Positions 1-5,252 of a stretch of 64,000 nucleotides of DNA are shown here, one piece after another (within the stretch, counting starts at the first letter, position 1; every line of letters starts with the position of its first letter). The notes beneath the pieces were generated by a model. The model was not told where the DNA came from. It saw only the letters and a program-made list of their open reading frames with translations, and made no database searches. Made by a program: the position numbers and the translations under genes. Source of the stretch: a virus (Duplodnaviria > Heunggongvirae > Uroviricota > Caudoviricetes); IMG/VR virus record IMGVR_UViG_3300012352_000310, positions 1 to 64,000 of that record; one strand, given 5' to 3'.

Positions 1-52
1 CCGGAACTGGCAGATTAAAAGTCTGCTGTGATAACCATTTCACTATACTCCC
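1..52 (-). tRNA. tRNA 5' portion truncated by window edge (anticodon UUU, Lys-like)
   Basis: reverse complement gives acceptor, D-arm GTGA/TCAC, anticodon loop CUUUUAA; T-arm lies outside window. Confidence 0.35.
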
Positions 53-56
53 GTAG

Positions 57-133
57 TGGTCCCTCACCTCGGATTCGAACCGAGACCTCGATGATTAAGA
101 GTCATGTACGCTAACCGTTAACGCCAATGAGGG
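57..133 (-). tRNA. tRNA-Lys(CUU)-like
   Basis: rc cloverleaf: acceptor CCCTCAT/GTGAGGG, T-loop TTCGAAT, anticodon loop CUCUUAA, encoded CCA. Confidence 0.55.
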
Positions 134-597
134 AAGTTGTTCGTAATTACTTTTGTCTTTTACGTGCCAACCGGGACCAATACGGGATCCAAGTTGACAC
201 TAACGTTTACCACGTTTCATGTCAATCTCCATTTGAGTAAAATTAAAATAACAGGATAGCTTTTTTGCGTTTTTCAATTACAAGTTGAGTGCTTTTTAGT
301 TGCTGCAACTATCCTAGATGAGAACAGGATCCGCTTTCTTTTCAAGATATAGGTTGAAATTTTTAATTTGCGGTAAGGATCCTAAGAATTTAATTTGTAA
401 GTAGTTGCACCATCATTATAGCAACCATTCACCCGTGTAACAAGCTCGAGCGGGACTCGGTACGTCACTTGGGATTCATCCAGTCATGCAACCATTTTGC
501 CTTTAGTGGGATTCGAACCCATGACCTTCTACTGACCAGCACCTTCGAAGAATGCTGACCAGCGTGATTTCACTTGCTGACACTTACAAAACTTGAT

Positions 598-677
598 TGT
601 GTGTTGCAGGATTCGAACCTACATCCGGAGGTTTTACCCTCATGTAATGATGCCCTAAACATTTATACTAAACACAC
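598..677 (-). tRNA. aberrant tRNA-like element (perfect 7-bp acceptor + canonical T-arm, non-canonical central domain)
   Basis: acceptor GTGTGTT/AACACAC and GTAGG-TTCGAAT-CCTGC T-arm; no standard D/anticodon arms; no encoded CCA. Confidence 0.3.
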
Positions 678-683
678 AAAACT

Positions 684-759
684 TGGTGCGGGCTACAGGG
701 TTCGAACCTGCGACCTGAACGTTGGCAACGTTCCGCTCTACCAGCTGAGCTAAGCACGC
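684..759 (-). tRNA. tRNA-Gly(GCC)
   Basis: rc: D-arm GCTCAGCTGGTAGAGC, anticodon stem GAACG/CGTTC loop UUGCCAA, T-loop TTCGAAC, CCA encoded. Confidence 0.8.
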
Positions 760-766
760 ATTAAAT

Positions 767-841
767 TGGCGGCCTCAAGGGGTAACGATCCCCTTCTTTA
801 GCAGTGACAGTGCTACGTGCGTCCATGAACACTTTGAGGCC
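767..841 (-). tRNA. tRNA-Asp(GUC)
   Basis: rc: anticodon stem TAGCA/TGCTA loop CUGUCAC; acceptor GGCCTCA/TGAGGCC; CCA encoded. Confidence 0.75.
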
Positions 842-941
842 AAAATTTCTGAGTCGTACTTAATTACACGGCATATACGCCCGTCCGTGATGTTACGGTT
901 GCAAACTTACCTGCAGGACGCGATTGCAACTATCTTACATT

Positions 942-1016
942 TGGCGACTCGTGGGAGAATCGAACTCCCATCTACGGATAGACAATCCGCGATAATAGCC
1001 ATTATATGAACGAGCC
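942..1016 (-). tRNA. tRNA with GUC anticodon (second Asp-like copy, U37 unusual)
   Basis: rc: acceptor GGCTCGT/ACGAGTC, T-arm GGGAG..CTCCC, anticodon loop UUGUCUA. Confidence 0.5.
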
Positions 1017-1144
1017 ATGAATATGTGGCATTACGAACTTTAGCCGTACTTCTAACGCGAGTACCGAAAAGATCTACTGTGTGCAGACCCGAACAACACG
1101 CCTAGACCTTTTCTAGGATTGACAGCAACTGACGTTGCCGAACT

Positions 1145-1222
1145 TGGTGGGCCCACTTGGAGTCGAACCAAGCACCAACGGATTATGAGTCCGCTGCTCT
1201 AACCAACATGAGCTATAGGCCC
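1145..1222 (-). tRNA. tRNA-Met/Ile2(CAU)
   Basis: rc: GCTC..GAGC D-arm, anticodon stem GCGGA/TCCGT loop CUCAUAA, acceptor GGGCCTA/TGGGCCC, CCA. Confidence 0.8.
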
Positions 1223-1233
1223 AATAAGATAAA

Positions 1234-1319
1234 TGGTGGAGACGACTGGAGTCGAACCAGTAGTGCCATAAGGCGGCGGATTTACAGTCCACTGGGGTTA
1301 CCAATTTTCCTACATCTCC
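1234..1319 (-). tRNA. tRNA-Tyr(GUA), class II
   Basis: rc: anticodon stem GTGGA/TCCGC loop CUGUAAA, long variable arm, 86 nt, CCA encoded. Confidence 0.75.
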
Positions 1320-1327
1320 AAATTCTT

Positions 1328-1402
1328 TGGTAGCCAGTGGTGGTCTCGAACCACCGACCCACGCCTTATCAAGACGTTGCTCTACCCCTGAGCTAACTGG
1401 CC
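1328..1402 (-). tRNA. tRNA-Ile(GAU)
   Basis: rc: GCTCAGGGGTAGAGC D-arm, anticodon stem ACGTC/GGCGT loop UUGAUAA. Confidence 0.8.
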
Positions 1403-1408
1403 ATTTCT

Positions 1409-1501
1409 ACCATATTAAAACGCACTATCTACAGTTAAGACATGTGGGAAGTCTTCACTTGATAGTTCGTCACACCACCGACGCTTAAGCGTTTTAATAT
1501 G
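1409..1501 (-). ncRNA. structured spacer element (14-bp inverted repeat CCATATTAAAACGC/GCGTTTTAATATGG enclosing nested hairpins); possible small stable RNA
   Basis: perfect long-range inverted repeat with internal stems AAGAC/GTCTT and ACTATC/GATAGT, between two tRNAs. Confidence 0.3.
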
Positions 1502-1575
1502 GTACACCTAGAGGGAATCGAACCCTACGTTTCCGCCTTGAAAGGGCAGCGTCCTAACCGTTAGACGATAGGTGC
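1500..1575 (-). tRNA. tRNA-Glu(UUC)
   Basis: rc: D-arm GTCT..GGAC, anticodon stem CTGCC/GGCGG loop CUUUCAA, CCA encoded. Confidence 0.8.
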
Positions 1576-1576
1576 A

Positions 1577-1603
1577 AAGAAAAACTTTCGAATTTTTAAA
1601 GAG
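1577..1603. repeat. near-palindromic motif AAAGAAAAACTTTCGAATTTTTAAAGA (copy 1 of 2)
   Basis: same 27-nt element recurs at 5200-5226; each sits just upstream (minus-strand sense) of a tRNA sub-array and downstream of early promoters. Confidence 0.7.
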
Positions 1604-1629
1604 CTTTTGCTTTTCAGCAACTGAAGATG

Positions 1630-1661
1630 TATTATACACCATCAGCTAATTTATGTACAAC
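1630..1661 (-). promoter_or_regulatory. early sigma70-like promoter (consensus module) reading into tRNA sub-array 1
   Basis: plus ATTATAC..N..TGTACA = minus TTGTACA-N17-TGnTATAAT. Confidence 0.6.
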
Positions 1662-3815: not shown

Positions 3816-3823
3816 ATGAAACT

Positions 3824-3899
3824 TGGTGCCGCCCACTAGAATCGAACTAGTTCCTGTGGATTTTCAGTCCACCGTACACACCAGTTATACGAGAGCGGC
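3824..3899 (-). tRNA. tRNA with GAA anticodon (second Phe-like copy)
   Basis: rc: anticodon stem GTGGA/TCCAC loop CUGAAAA; acceptor GCCGCTC/GGGCGGC. Confidence 0.55.
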
Positions 3900-3907
3900 T
3901 ATAAAAT

Positions 3908-3986
3908 TGGCTCCGGATGTGGGGATCGAACCCACCTAACCATTGATTAACAGTCAAGCCCATGCACCTTGCTCGGGTTTTCCGGA
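3908..3986 (-). tRNA. tRNA-Asn(GUU)
   Basis: rc: anticodon loop CUGUUAA; D-stem CCCG/TGGG. Confidence 0.65.
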
Positions 3987-3996
3987 ATAGAAATTA

Positions 3997-4067
3997 GGCC
4001 CTCGTGGATGGATTTGAACCACCGACCACTGCGCGCTTGTTGCTCTCCCAGACTGAGCTACACGAGG
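3997..4067 (-). tRNA. tRNA-like with perfect acceptor and D-arm but collapsed anticodon arm (pseudogene?)
   Basis: acceptor CCTCGTG/CACGAGG, GCTC..GAGC D-arm, T-arm present; only 18 nt between D- and T-arms; CCA not encoded. Confidence 0.3.
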
Positions 4068-4074
4068 ATTGAAT

Positions 4075-4148
4075 TGGTGCCCCATGACAGAATCGAACTG
4101 CCGTAACCTGATTACAAAACAGGTGTAATACCATTATACTAATAGGGC
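4075..4148 (-). tRNA. tRNA-Thr(UGU)
   Basis: rc: anticodon loop UUUGUAA; acceptor GCCCTAT/ATGGGGC. Confidence 0.7.
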
Positions 4149-4153
4149 AAATT

Positions 4154-4227
4154 TGGTAGCCTGTAGAGGTTACGATCCTCTGTCGCTCGATTATCAGTCG
4201 AGTGCTCTACCATTGAGCTAACGGGCT
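4154..4227 (-). tRNA. tRNA-Ile(GAU), second copy
   Basis: rc: GCTCAATGGTAGAGC, anticodon stem CTCGA/TCGAG loop CUGAUAA. Confidence 0.7.
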
Positions 4228-4304
4228 ATTATAAAACAGGATGCTTTTTGTCGCTAGACAACCAAAAGTTTAGCTTTGAGTTTTGCTGTAGTCATCCTAA
4301 AACT

Positions 4305-4379
4305 TGGTATCGCATACGGGTAACGATCCCGTCTAGTCAGCTTGAAAGGCTGATGACCTCACCTGAAGTCGAATGCGAT
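4305..4379 (-). tRNA. tRNA-Glu(UUC), second copy
   Basis: rc: anticodon stem TCAGC/GCTGA loop CUUUCAA; acceptor ATCGCAT/ATGCGAT. Confidence 0.7.
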
Positions 4380-4673
4380 ATTGAAATTGGTGGAGATGGT
4401 GGGATTCGAACCGCACACAAGAACTTTTACAGAGTTAGAGCTATAGGGTTGCAGAACTTATCCTTGTCAGGATAATTTTTTTGCTATGCTATGCTACCAT
4501 TACATCACATCTCCAAAATCTTTCTAAAGCACATCTACCAGAATTGAACTGGTGACCGGAAGGCACTGCACATCCAGCTATGATCCACATAAGAGCCTAG
4601 CCTCAGCTCCGATATGCTTTAGAAAAATGACTGACAATTTATCTCATTGTACGCCATCAGTCAAGGCGATTCT

Positions 4674-4757
4674 TGGTGGAGTGAGTAGGGATCGAACCTA
4701 CCTGCCGTGAGGCCACCGGGTTACAGCCGGCTAGAACACCATTGTTCCATTCACTCC
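4674..4757 (-). tRNA. tRNA-Tyr(GUA), class II, second copy
   Basis: rc: anticodon stem GCCGG/CCGGT loop CUGUAAC, long variable arm. Confidence 0.65.
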
Positions 4758-4762
4758 ATGTT

Positions 4763-4854
4763 TGGCGGAGAGCAGAGGAGTCGAACCCCATCCCATTTCT
4801 GAGAACCTGGTTTTCAAGGCCAGTCGCAGGACCATCCCCGCTGCATTACTCTCC
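4763..4854 (-). tRNA. tRNA-Ser(UGA), class II
   Basis: rc: anticodon loop CUUGAAA, long variable arm, 92 nt. Confidence 0.7.
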
Positions 4855-4860
4855 ATGTCT

Positions 4861-4937
4861 TGGCGCGCCCCACAGGATTCGAACCTGCATACCCCAACTT
4901 CGTAGGATGGTACATTCTCCAGTTATGCTAAAGACGC
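4861..4937 (-). tRNA. tRNA-Arg(ACG)
   Basis: rc: anticodon stem CCATC/GTTGG loop CUACGAA; acceptor GCGTCTT/GGGGCGC with wobbles. Confidence 0.7.
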
Positions 4938-4947
4938 GTAAATTTGT

Positions 4948-5025
4948 TGGCAGAGGTAACTGGATTCGAACCAGTGATCACGATTTCAAAGACCGTTGCT
5001 TTAGGCCAGACTAAGCTATACCCCA
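4948..5025 (-). tRNA. tRNA-Gln(UUG)
   Basis: rc: D-arm GCTT..AAGC, anticodon stem ACGGT/ATCGT loop CUUUGAA. Confidence 0.65.
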
Positions 5026-5199
5026 ACAATATTAAAACAAACACCAGTCCCGAGGATTCGAACCTCTTTCTCTAGTAGTTTACCACGACGTTTACAGTCA
5101 GGCAAGTGTTTGCTTTAATATAGCCCCTAGCAAGCAGTGAACCAGTACAAAGACCAGCGCTTACTTGCTAGGTGCCATCAACTAGACTTTCGTCTAGTT

Positions 5200-5226
5200 A
5201 AGAAAAACTTTCGAATTTTTAAAGAT
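5200..5226. repeat. near-palindromic motif AAGAAAAACTTTCGAATTTTTAAAGAT (copy 2 of 2)
   Basis: matches 1577-1603; preceded by 8-bp hairpin AACTAGAC-TTTC-GTCTAGTT. Confidence 0.7.
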
Positions 5227-5252
5227 CAGTGGAAGTTTCCTTCCTAAGGAGC

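Follow-up and report, generated by a model that had tools for sequence, protein, structure and literature searches.

The DNA analysed here is a 64-kb stretch (the window; positions 1 to 64,000) of the virus record IMGVR_UViG_3300012352_000310 (Caudoviricetes), whose first 5.5 kb carry a dense array of tRNA genes. Positions 1–5500 of the minus strand are probably the tRNA island of an uncultured large phage, which comprises two putative transcription units led by boxA-like elements and holds same-anticodon tRNAs of old, separate lineages, among them members of a class with a swapped pair of T-loop nucleotides. ARAGORN identified 30 tRNA genes between positions 57 and 5025, exclusively on the minus strand, and none in the other 59 kb of the window; the CCA end is encoded in 29 of the 30. 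The Rfam tRNA model RF00005 also matched 26 of these genes and gave three additional matches at 1–52 (34.8 bits, cut by the window start), 598–677 (35.8 bits), and 3999–4067 (42 bits). The first of these is 98% identical to the tRNA-Lys(UUU) of L022 (L-numbers denote comparison loci, including related viral contigs, which are called relatives below), and the array continues past the window start. Matches to the tRNA-Sec model stayed below threshold at 4766–4855 and 3911–3987, and this model was the only one to match the tRNA-Tyr gene at 4674–4757 (4677–4758, likewise below threshold). A tRNA-Sec was rejected (scores of the model 36.9 bits, for 4766–4855, and 34.5 bits, threshold 47), 4766–4855 being Ser(UGA) by its UGA anticodon and 4677–4758 being Tyr(GUA). 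Five relatives have tRNA-Ser(UGA) genes that align with 4763–4856, and the alignment shows stem covariation, the loop CUUGAAA, and a common C31-A39 mismatch. Similarly, 3908–3986 aligns with the Asn(GUU) tRNAs of five relatives, with covarying stems and a divergent D-arm. Together with these two and the cut Lys(UUU) gene, the island holds 33 probable tRNA genes, besides about four tRNA-shaped RNAs, in agreement with the roughly 35 minus-strand tRNA genes in 5 kb counted in an earlier note on this DNA, which a model had made from the sequence alone. The limits given there for two sub-arrays were exact: Glu(UUC) (1500–1575) is the first gene of sub-array 1, and sub-array 2 extends from Gln(UUG) (4948–5025), its first gene, to Arg(UCU) (1975–2051), its last. 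The island also contains two small open reading frames (ORFs) and no fewer than six structured or tRNA-like RNAs with conserved counterparts in related viral contigs. A tmRNA was rejected, as ARAGORN gave only "permuted" tmRNA calls spanning several tRNAs and the Rfam tmRNA model scored 17.3 bits (threshold 47).

The island itself is a phage tRNA array of a well-known kind. Downstream, on the plus strand, lie genes for an ATP-dependent DNA ligase, an RNase H-like exonuclease, NrdA, a nicotinamide phosphoribosyltransferase, and a virion protein; the matches of the ligase, exonuclease, NrdA, and virion protein genes to phage families support the phage setting of the array. No close cultured relative was found: megablast of positions 1–5300 against INPHARED returned single-tRNA matches only, and the ligase is at most 43% identical to that of any cultured phage. 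Nothing was found that supports the Vibrio host assumed in the earlier note, and nothing that excludes it. A related ligase is present in 145 IMG/VR contigs, the best 80 of which show 55–67% identity. In seven of the comparison loci (L002, L015, L017, L022, L025, L031, and L047), the ligase gene precedes tRNA-Gln(UUG) and an array with as many as 36 tRNAs, an order also seen in the window. According to the codon usage of the window ORFs, the tRNA set covers the common codon boxes of the phage.

tRNA pairs and the A54:U58 class

Several anticodons occur twice in the island. ARAGORN called the same anticodon for both members in the pairs Ile(GAU) 1328/4154, Glu(UUC) 1500/4305, Tyr(GUA) 1234/4674, CAU 1145/2783, and Phe(GAA) 3353/3824 (genes named by their first position), all of which the earlier note had listed. 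A further pair, Asp(GUC) 767/942, lies within sub-array 1 and had been overlooked. The Ile, Glu, Tyr, and Phe pairs could be confirmed, but the two CAU genes do not form a true pair. When compared with all 5,426 E. coli genomes, the gene at 1145–1222 had its best full-length match (78%) with genes annotated as tRNA-Ile, and judging by its sequence it looks like a lysidine-type tRNA-Ile2 rather than tRNA-Met. The gene at 2783–2854 is devoid of CCA, has a mismatched acceptor stem and no ortholog above 68%, and is enclosed by a hairpin cassette. Identity between the members of a pair ranges from 56% to 72% (Ile 72%, Tyr 66%, Phe 64%, Glu 62%, Asp 58%), and the best paralog of each island tRNA is 61–72% identical and often of another isotype. 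Each copy has its own orthologs in related contigs; Glu 4305, for example, is 97% identical to genes in L019, L026, and L031, and Asp 942 is 97% identical to one in L044. The copies are therefore old, separately evolving lineages and neither recent duplicates nor decayed pseudogenes. The separate evolution had been proposed before, with differing anticodons or a pseudogene in each pair named as signs to the contrary. The anticodons are identical within each pair, the variant Glu and Ile copies score 41 and 62 bits with Rfam, and only Asp 767–841, absent from the earlier list, is not seen by Rfam.

In one copy each of the Asp (767–841), Glu (4305–4379), and Ile (4154–4227) pairs, the usual T-loop TTCRANY is replaced by ATCGTTA or ATCGTAA. 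These three tRNAs carry A at position 54 and T at position 58, the reverse of the near-universal T54:A58, which is present in the other 27 ARAGORN tRNAs. Swapped loops were also detected in Asp, Glu, Ile, Thr, Lys, His, Val, and Met tRNAs of relatives and, among cultured phages, in five tRNAs of Stenotrophomonas phage DLP_6 and two of Ralstonia phage RSP15, some of which are missing from the GenBank annotation; DLP_6 has Phe, Ile, Asn, Glu, and Gln variants, and RSP15 has an Asp variant. Variant tRNAs are located in L082 (898–973, 5152–5225, 5700–5774, 5992–6065, and 6401–6474) and L083 (5995–6070 and 7896–7972); together with those of the window, they have the T-loops ATCGTTA, ATCGTAA, and ATCGTTC. 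Among 985 distinct phage tRNAs called by ARAGORN, positions 54 and 58 were TA in 923, AT in 50, AA in 8, CA in 2, GG in 2, and TT in none. An enlarged set of 2,958 distinct tRNAs contained 2,695 TA, 208 AT, and no TT, a count to be read with caution because targeted searching inflated it for the variant tRNA-Asp. The 208 AT cases and the absence of TT indicate that positions 54 and 58 covary.

The structure of the variant tRNA-Asp is well conserved. In the cloverleaf of six orthologs, 120 of 120 stem cells are paired and 11 of the 20 pairs show compensatory changes, values that neither shuffles nor slid registers came near; the T-loop (AUCGUUA) and the D-loop are invariant. In addition, A8 and T14 replace U8 and A14 in 74 of 80 distinct sequences. 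The variant tRNA-Ile (62.2 bits) and tRNA-Glu (41 bits) are recognized by the Rfam tRNA model, scores that are not pseudogene-like. The variant tRNA-Ile is 83% identical to a tRNA-Ile of L047, whose T-loop is AGCGTTA, and L028 and L031 possess a tRNA-Asp with the loop AUCGAAA. The reading of the odd T-loops as pseudogenes was rejected in view of the fully paired stems, the compensatory changes, and the 54/58 covariation; broken stems and a lack of purifying selection were not observed for the variant tRNA-Asp, and the variant tRNA-Glu is 97% conserved in three relatives.

The T-arm pattern GGGGATCGTTACCCC-N9-CCA gave 18 matches in 596 Gb of bacterial and archaeal genomes, where approximately 17 were estimated to occur by chance. 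Ten of the 18 are tRNAs, each located among 4–20 tRNAs within 8 kb on contigs of metagenome-assembled genomes (MAGs), and eight are not tRNAs. In the much smaller IMG/VR, at least 119 matches were obtained; among the matches listed, a called tRNA with the motif, nearly always Asp, was present at 109 of 115 loci, and the median was 14 tRNAs per locus. In these scans, the A54:U58 tRNAs are a virus-specific structural class, and the class is under selection. Bacterial MAG contigs with dense arrays and phage-type variants (L321–L325, L328, L330, L331, and L333, assigned to Rhodocyclaceae, Aquiluna, Crocinitomicaceae, and others) probably represent prophages or phage contigs placed in the wrong bin; L325 carries the same promoter-hairpin-boxA module as the relatives of the window.

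The second copies might instead provide gene dosage for heavily used codons, with the odd T-loops resulting from neutral drift or early pseudogenization. The duplicated isoacceptors indeed serve abundant amino acids (Asp 6.4%, Glu 6.9%, Ile 6.2%, Phe 3.7%, and Tyr 3.8% of the codons in the 57 ORFs of the window), and the variant tRNA-Asp was not matched by RF00005 even in a 301-nt search at E values up to 10. However, the almost perfect covariation of positions 54 and 58 (AT 208, TT 0), the invariance of AUCGUUA across orthologs with compensated stems, and the occurrence of the A54:U58 class in many isotypes and many phages are not expected from drift or decay, and dosage alone does not explain the structural difference between the copies. 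We regard this explanation as doubtful, although dosage may hold in addition.

For the swap we favor, with low confidence, an escape from a host activity that reads the canonical tRNA elbow. Two points weigh against it. In other arrays, within the stretches examined, the variant was found without a canonical twin in 41 cases and with one in 12, which weakens the simple reading as a back-up twin and led to its rejection as a general rule. Furthermore, we know of no nuclease or enzyme that discriminates A54:U58. The proposal is made by analogy to escape changes of phage tRNAs that are known in the anticodon arm (PMC10264068, PMC12409363). The closest known case to the A54:U58 class is the eukaryotic initiator tRNA, in which A54 replaces T54 in a non-canonical elbow formed with A58, A60, and A20 (PMC10602860). 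The AUCGAAA loop in the tRNA-Asp of L028 and L031 is a point of resemblance to it. In contrast to the initiator tRNA, which keeps A58, the phage class has U58 and hence a swapped pair, and it comprises elongator tRNAs of many isotypes in viruses of bacteria.

Promoters and boxA-like leaders of the two units

The window contains 28 copies of the sequence TGTACAWWAAT-N12-TAYAAT (0.17 expected), 27 of which are on the minus strand; this sequence is the predicted sigma-70-type promoter of the phage itself. The consensus early promoters from which the sub-arrays had been proposed to be read are thus real as a sequence class. Six copies are located in the island (−35 to −10: 5462–5434, 5374–5346, 5282–5254, 3086–3058, 1926–1898, and 1659–1631). 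No boxA-like element follows those at 5462, 5374, 3086, and 1926, and it is lacking at the island promoters that drive ORFs. In the sequence, two main putative transcription units can be delimited, unit A from 5282 to 1975 and unit B from 1659 to beyond position 1. A terminator-like hairpin (5502–5472) closes the upstream operon. The promoter sequence TGTACAATAAATCAAATCTGTTGTATAAT occurs elsewhere in the window in three identical copies spaced exactly 258 nt (27081–27625, minus strand), which suggests a tandem repeat of a promoter-bearing unit.

The head of each unit displays the same module of promoter, small hairpin, and boxA-like element. The hairpins (5244–5231 and 1620–1607) precede the two copies of the 24-mer CTTTAAAAATTCGAAAGTTTTTCT, which occurs exactly twice in 64 kb (1578–1601 and 5201–5224, minus strand; expected 0.00). 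Both copies are positioned exactly 30 nt past the −10 hexamer of the promoters 5282 and 1659, with the boxA start at 27 nt, and the exact identity between them reaches 26 nt. The earlier note had described a shared 27-nt near-palindromic motif as the end of each sub-array. The shared string exists, but in each sub-array it occupies the high-coordinate end, which lies next to the promoter and comes first in the direction of transcription, and its palindromy is weak, being confined to TTCGAA with A5/T5.

The first half of the motif is boxA-like and reads GCTCTTTAAAAATT in unit B (1591–1604) and GATCTTTAAAAATT in unit A (5214–5227). GCTCTTTAAAAATT is identical to GCTCTTTAACAATT of E. coli rrnB at 13 of 14 positions. 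Both window copies are close to GCUCUUUAACAA, and both lie on the transcribed strand soon after a promoter and behind a boxB-like hairpin. Allowing for 0–1 mismatch, the element has two sites in the 64 kb, namely the heads of the two sub-arrays. In the leader of E. coli rrnB, a hairpin and then TGCTCTTTAACAATTT are found directly past promoter P2. In rrn operons, P2 is closely followed by boxB, boxA, and boxC in this order, and boxA is both required for formation of the antitermination complex and sufficient for it (PMC10250234). The rrn leader and the lambda nut sites share with the window a hairpin followed by GCUCUUUAA(A/C)AAUU, tens of nucleotides past the promoter on the transcribed strand (PMC10250234), and the rrn leader likewise stands ahead of a long untranslated structured RNA. 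Unlike the rrn leader, the window leader heads phage tRNA arrays instead of rRNA and has A instead of C at position 10.

The module was recovered in 13 relatives as promoter, hairpin, and aacGTTCTTTAAAAATT, located ahead of tRNA-Gln and a second time ahead of tRNA-Glu. What is kept among them is only G[C/T]TCTTTAAAAATT and the hairpin, the latter as a structure whose sequence varies; the 3' half of the motif (TTCGAAAGTTTTTCTT) is the same in both window copies but not conserved in the 13 relatives. Arrays of at least eight same-strand tRNAs among the loci collected were scanned for the 12-mer G[CT]TCTTT[AG]A[ACT]AA. It was found 17 times in sense and once in antisense orientation in the relatives, and 82 times in sense and twice in antisense orientation in 169 other arrays (IMG/VR and MAG loci within L084–L421), in total 99 vs. 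3. The usual site is 20–35 nt before a tRNA, just past a −10-like hexamer and a hairpin. In Rhodobacter phage RcXuper, GCTCTTTGACAATTT is present approximately 100 nt before the tRNA cluster. A boxA-like site lies at L081 834–848. The sense-strand bias of 99:3 and the fixed place past promoter and hairpin fit an RNA signal of the rrn type, and the motif is best read as a boxB-boxA leader of this type that would recruit host Nus factors.

A number of observations weigh against this reading. The boxA-like element is absent from the stretches examined of T5, DLP_6, RSP15, LpeD, and 3-521, which means that boxA is dispensable for phage tRNA arrays. By eye, neither a TGTGTGGG-like boxC nor a leader-trailer helix was identified in the window, although no systematic search was made. 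In unit A, the second position of the element is A (GATC...), the assignment to boxA is based on sequence, position, and strand, and antitermination is needed less because of the internal promoters. The 169 arrays were retrieved for unrelated reasons and are not phylogenetically independent. Alternatively, the shared motif might serve as an operator in the DNA to which a phage or host regulator binds, as a processing site for an RNase, or as an attenuator or terminator in the leader. In favor of this, it contains a TTCGAA core with A5/T5 flanks, A5T5 palindromes are also found upstream of other island promoters, and the 3' half TTCGAAAGTTTTTCTT is common to both copies and lacking in the relatives. 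These palindromes, ACGAAAAATTTTTCGT (1928–1952) and GAAAAAATTTTTCGAA (5382–5402), are located on the minus strand just upstream of the −35 boxes of promoters 1926 and 5374 and could be UP elements or a binding site. The alternative is nevertheless unlikely: what is conserved across relatives is the boxA-like half only, the strand bias and the fixed position are those of an rrn-type RNA signal, and the identity to E. coli boxA amounts to 13 of 14 positions. A terminator in particular was rejected, since the possible stem consists of A-U pairs only, the 3' half is not conserved, and no proper terminator follows.

The leaders also bear on the origin of the two-unit layout. The order in relatives is ligase, promoter, boxA, and tRNA-Gln with further tRNAs, then a small ORF, promoter, boxA, and tRNA-Glu with further tRNAs; the segment from the 67-amino-acid ORF to tRNA-Glu (1870–1500) is conserved in L015, L022, L025, and L027. 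As this layout is common to relatives with ligases of only 55–67% identity, it predates the divergence of these phages, and the tRNA content of each unit varies among them. The origin of the sub-arrays from two independent acquisitions or from an ancient duplication, proposed in the earlier note, is quite improbable and did not hold: four anticodons recur across the sub-arrays, Glu precedes Ile in both (4305 then 4154; 1500 then 1328), the same-anticodon copies are strongly diverged, and the leader modules share 26 identical nucleotides, but the pair identity of 56–72% equals the background between unrelated tRNAs, so that neither sub-array contains copies of the other, collinearity is limited to the Glu-Ile adjacency, the Asp and Phe pairs each lie inside one sub-array, the CAU genes differ in kind, the ancestral layout comes with a different distribution of tRNAs between the units, and three pairs consist of a canonical tRNA and a member of a widespread phage-specific class.

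Long tRNA(UAU) and other embedded RNAs

The 92-nt tRNA(UAU) at 3537–3628 combines a class-I-like D-arm (4-bp stem, 7-nt loop), U33, and A37 with an extra arm. It does not belong to class II, which is characterized by a Leu, Ser, or Tyr anticodon, a class II D-arm, and a long arm; its extra-arm loop has 7 nt. The extra-arm stem (3–6 bp as scored, 5 bp in the five-ortholog fold) covaries, and the 7-nt loop is CAGAT(T/A)A in all five sequences. Orthologs adjoin tRNA-Ser(GCU) in L015, L022, and L047, and in DLP_6 one is annotated as tRNA-Ile-TAT. BLAST revealed the family in Lactobacillus phage LpeD, where it is unannotated, and in Acinetobacter phage qsb1; the member in L. brevis phage 3-521 has a differing loop. 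In total, 137 distinct members of 90–96 nt were collected from phages of very different hosts, with the discriminator base A in 128 of them. AGAT occupies loop positions 2–5 in 66 of 76 members from samples not chosen by loop, and the consensus is YAGAUNR. Further family coordinates are L022 4184–4278, L047 12619–12713, L015 7845–7936, L082 791–885, L204 2999–3090, and L205 2997–3087. An ochre-suppressor (UUA) reading was rejected, as the perfect 5-bp stems of the orthologs close the loop CUUAUAC, which gives the anticodon UAU.

Between the extra loop CAGAUAA and the anticodon loop of the window tRNA-Ile(GAU) at 4154–4227, CUGAUAA, position 33 is the sole difference; the consensus YAGAUNR likewise resembles a tRNA-Ile(GAU) anticodon loop with A33. 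This similarity suggests that the extra hairpin may act as a second, Ile-like "anticodon," which would help isoleucyl-tRNA synthetase to accept a decoder of AUA without lysidine. AUA accounts for 11% of the Ile codons in the window ORFs. The competing explanation is that the tRNA(UAU) is charged with leucine, like the nematode nev-tRNA-Ile(UAU); nev-tRNAs are class II tRNAs with UAU or CCC anticodons that are leucine-charged (PMC3333845). Both have a long extra arm and the anticodon UAU of a class I amino acid, but the phage tRNA(UAU) differs from the nev-tRNA in its class-I-like D-arm, its short extra stem, and its 7-nt loop with a nearly invariant AGAU core.

Several further RNAs are embedded between the tRNA genes (Table 1). 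The tRNA-like RNA at 4384–4518 (approximately 131 nt) has acceptor, D, and T arms, a Tyr-type anticodon hairpin (loop CUGUAAA), an acceptor stem of the tRNA-Tyr type, and a conserved insertion of approximately 52 nt between the D-arm and the anticodon arm. Its kin (L047 20955–21090 and L031 15364–15496) are 82–86% identical, and the consensus fold shows compensatory changes. The tRNA-like RNA at 597–678 is 94.5% identical to its counterpart in L047. The structured RNA at 385–595 (approximately 210 nt) folds with 50 pairs, 17 of them compensatory in four sequences, and contains a T-arm-like hairpin and long invariant single-stranded stretches; its kin (71–78%) are L047 15374–15600, L025 14249–14475, and L044 11661–11889. 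An RNase P-like RNA or a member of another known family was rejected for this region because no Rfam match was obtained, even in a small search.

Between tRNAs there are five hairpin cassettes with the general form TAGGATNN...NNATCCTG. Past their closing stem, TAGG(A/T)TNN...NN(A/T)CCTG, a T-rich run and ATTAT or ATAAT immediately precede the next tRNA. The contents range from nothing to the CCA-less CAU tRNA-like gene, and two of the five cassettes are conserved in relatives. Two inserts of 65 and 90 nt (1403–1504 and 2565–2692) are closed by inverted repeats starting ACCATATT; both repeats start with ACCATATTRAA, include the CCA end of the upstream tRNA, and are absent from relatives. The inserts could be RNase III-type processing stems or small mobile inserts. 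The sequences at 3997–4067, 4528–4617, and 2783–2854 are possibly pseudogenes in view of their defective arms and the lack of orthologs. No PHROG match was obtained for the 67- and 79-amino-acid ORFs or for three neighboring small ORFs.

Table 1. Features of the tRNA island by position in the window (all on the minus strand), with the evidence for each; percentages are identities
Feature	Position	Evidence
tRNA-Lys(UUU), 5' part, cut by window start	1–52	Rfam 34.8 bits; 98% to L022
tRNA-Lys(CUU)	57–133	ARAGORN; Rfam 46.9 bits
Hairpin cassette TAGGATAG...CTATCCTG	246–316	BLAST 80–87% to inter-tRNA spacers of L031, L022, L028, L047; motif scan
Hairpin cassette TAGGATCC...GGATCCTG	325–384	Sequence, motif scan; only Rfam match below threshold, chance-like
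~210-nt structured RNA, no known family	385–595	71–78% to L047, L025, L044
tRNA-like RNA, aberrant anticodon arm	597–678	Rfam 35.8 bits; ARAGORN at relaxed threshold only, anticodon undefined
tRNA-Gly(GCC)	684–759	ARAGORN; Rfam 63.2 bits
tRNA-Asp(GUC) variant, T-loop AUCGUUA, A54:U58 and A8:U14	767–841	ARAGORN; six orthologs
tRNA-Asp(GUC), canonical T-loop	942–1016	ARAGORN; Rfam 48.7 bits; 97% to L044
Conserved inter-tRNA spacer RNA	1020–1124	77% over 107 nt to L047 14741–14845
tRNA-Ile2-type, CAU anticodon	1145–1222	ARAGORN; Rfam 60.9 bits; E. coli tRNA-Ile match
tRNA-Tyr(GUA)	1234–1319	ARAGORN; Rfam 48 bits
tRNA-Ile(GAU), canonical T-loop	1328–1402	ARAGORN; Rfam 61.5 bits
Insert, perfect 16-nt inverted repeat (1408–1423/1489–1504), one arm including tRNA-Glu CCA	1403–1504	Repeat search; no match in relatives
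tRNA-Glu(UUC), canonical T-loop, first gene of unit B	1500–1575	ARAGORN; Rfam 55.5 bits
Unit B leader: boxA-like GCTCTTTAAAAATT (1591–1604) and rest of shared 26-nt string	1577–1604	13/14 to E. coli rrnB
boxB-like hairpin TTGCtgaaaaGCAA	1607–1620	Sequence; hairpin of varying sequence at same place in relatives
Unit B promoter TGTACA-N17-TATAAT	1631–1659	Promoter pattern scan
67-aa ORF with Shine-Dalgarno, between units	1667–1870	ORF list; DNA conserved upstream of second boxA in L015, L022, L025, L027
Promoter for 67-aa ORF, no boxA after it	1898–1926	Promoter pattern scan
tRNA-Arg(UCU), last gene of unit A	1975–2051	ARAGORN; Rfam 67.7 bits
79-aa ORF within unit A	2058–2297	ORF list; partly conserved in L002, L015, L016
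tRNA-Leu(UAA)	2300–2384	ARAGORN; Rfam 56.5 bits
Hairpin cassette TAGGTTAC...GTAACCTG, internal T-arm-like hairpin	2385–2492	79–81% to L019, L031; consensus fold
tRNA-Val(GAC)	2493–2567	ARAGORN; Rfam 63.3 bits
Insert, 19-nt inverted repeat (17/19), arms overlapping both flanking tRNA-Val ends	2565–2692	Repeat search; no match in relatives
tRNA-Val(UAC)	2689–2763	ARAGORN; Rfam 64.4 bits
Hairpin cassette TAGGATCG...CGATCCTG around CAU tRNA-like gene 2783–2854	2764–2881	ARAGORN; Rfam 56.1 bits; motif scan
tRNA-His(GUG)	2882–2955	ARAGORN; Rfam 55.6 bits
tRNA-Leu(UAG)	2965–3048	ARAGORN; Rfam 55.1 bits
Internal promoter of unit A, TTTACA-N17-TATAAT (11/12), no boxA	3058–3086	Promoter pattern scan
tRNA-Cys(GCA)	3092–3169	ARAGORN; Rfam 60.2 bits
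tRNA-Leu(CAA)	3177–3253	ARAGORN; Rfam 60.5 bits
tRNA-Ser(GGA)	3256–3346	ARAGORN; 82–85% to Ser(gga) of L047, L031
tRNA-Phe(GAA), copy 1	3353–3428	ARAGORN; Rfam 73.3 bits
tRNA-Ser(GCU)	3437–3526	ARAGORN; Rfam 48.2 bits
92-nt tRNA(UAU), extra-arm loop CAGAUAA	3537–3628	ARAGORN; Rfam 56.8 bits; orthologs
tRNA-Ala(UGC)	3650–3724	ARAGORN; Rfam 49.8 bits
tRNA-Pro(UGG)	3738–3815	ARAGORN; Rfam 33.5 bits
tRNA-Phe(GAA), copy 2	3824–3899	ARAGORN; Rfam 56.8 bits; 64% to copy 1
Probable tRNA-Asn(GUU), divergent D-arm, A7-A66 mismatch	3908–3986	ARAGORN at relaxed threshold only; five relatives
tRNA-like, short anticodon arm, no CCA, probably pseudogene	3997–4067	Rfam 42 bits; ARAGORN relaxed only; no match in relatives
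tRNA-Thr(UGU)	4075–4148	ARAGORN; Rfam 61.6 bits
tRNA-Ile(GAU) variant, T-loop AUCGUAA	4154–4227	ARAGORN; Rfam 62.2 bits
Hairpin cassette TAGGATG...CATCCTG	4228–4304	Sequence; motif scan
tRNA-Glu(UUC) variant, T-loop AUCGUUA	4305–4379	ARAGORN; Rfam 41 bits; 97% to L019, L026, L031
~131-nt tRNA-like RNA	4384–4518	82–86% to L047, L031; weak Rfam tmRNA match rejected
Weak tRNA-like sequence	4528–4617	ARAGORN at relaxed threshold only; not conserved in relatives
tRNA-Tyr(GUA), second lineage	4674–4757	ARAGORN; 66% to Tyr 1234
tRNA-Ser(UGA), C31-A39 mismatch, missed by default ARAGORN	4763–4856	tRNA-Sec model 36.9 bits; 88% to L031, L017; aligns with Ser(tga) of L022, L025, L047
tRNA-Arg(ACG)	4861–4937	ARAGORN; Rfam 45.5 bits
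tRNA-Gln(UUG), first gene of unit A, as in relatives	4948–5025	ARAGORN; Rfam 56.1 bits; synteny
Unit A leader: boxA-like GATCTTTAAAAATT (5214–5227) and rest of shared 26-nt string	5200–5227	Motif scans; relatives
boxB-like hairpin GGAAGgaaaCTTCC	5231–5244	Sequence; identical hairpin in L001, L002
Unit A promoter TGTACA-N17-TATAAT	5254–5282	Promoter pattern scan
Two more tandem promoters of the same class (5346–5374, 5434–5462)	5346–5462	Promoter pattern scan; repeat search
Intrinsic-terminator-like hairpin AGCCCCTA...TAGGGGCT and TTTT	5472–5502	Sequence; unlisted in simple scan (loop >8 nt)

Comparison with known arrays and proposed mechanism

Arrays of this general kind are known from other phages. 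In T4, two tRNA sub-clusters parted by small ORFs are co-transcribed, the polycistronic precursors are processed, and the stable RNAs C and D are embedded; KVP40-like Vibrio phages possess arrays of about 30 tRNAs. The window array is four times larger than that of T4. Its ligase is at most 41% identical to the ligases of the KVP40 group. To our knowledge, neither boxA leaders nor swapped T-loops have been described in T4- or KVP40-like tRNA regions. The tRNA region of T5 (NC_005859, approximately 28–41 kb) resembles the window in having about two dozen same-strand tRNAs over approximately 10 kb, interspersed with small ORFs and several phage promoters; like the window, it contains embedded RNAs, annotated there as "stable RNAs" and "tRNA-like stable RNAs with unknown functions." Unlike the window, it lacks a boxA-like leader and a long tRNA(UAU), and none of its 23 ARAGORN tRNAs has A54:U58; there is no sequence relationship between the two regions. 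Searches of open-access full text returned no account of phage tRNAs with A54:U58, of a boxA leader in phage tRNA arrays, or of a phage tRNA(UAU) with a long arm, and these three features, the last with its conserved extra hairpin, all appear to be undescribed.

In the mechanism that we propose, the nascent boxA RNA would bind host NusB-NusE(S10), and with NusA, NusG, and SuhB the RNA polymerase would become fast and Rho-resistant, enabling it to transcribe kilobases of RNA that is highly structured and not translated. The tRNAs would then be released by RNase P of the host, by endonucleases that cut at the hairpin spacers, and by trimming of the 3' ends, and CCA addition would not be needed. 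The tRNA set would then serve the codon usage of the phage, and translation could persist if host tRNAs were depleted or cleaved. With low confidence, we propose that the swap would alter the tRNA elbow such that U54 and A58, which are normally seen by T-loop enzymes, are gone; the variant copy might in this way escape a host activity that recognizes the canonical T-loop and still decode. As a whole, we put forward only tentatively that phage arrays employ two undescribed devices, Nus-recruiting boxA leaders and elbow-swapped functional tRNAs that evade host enzymes or defense nucleases, and as a third the Ile-like hairpin of the tRNA(UAU).

Phage tRNAs are now viewed as counter-measures to tRNA-targeting immunity, as exerted by PARIS, PrrC, Schlafens, OLD, and Cas12a3. 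Cultured phages carrying the features described here are Stenotrophomonas phage DLP_6, Ralstonia phage RSP15, Rhodobacter phage RcXuper, and Lactobacillus phage LpeD. Because the covariance model misses the variant tRNA-Asp and the GenBank annotations of DLP_6 and RSP15 have gaps, phage tRNA counts and analyses of codon supply are biased. The A54:U58 class would represent a natural experiment on a near-invariant tertiary pair for the structural biology of tRNA. If true, a boxA leader on tRNA arrays would mean that phages borrow the rRNA antitermination machinery of the host for their own stable RNAs, and a conserved, virus-restricted swap of T54:A58 would indicate a host activity that reads the tRNA elbow.

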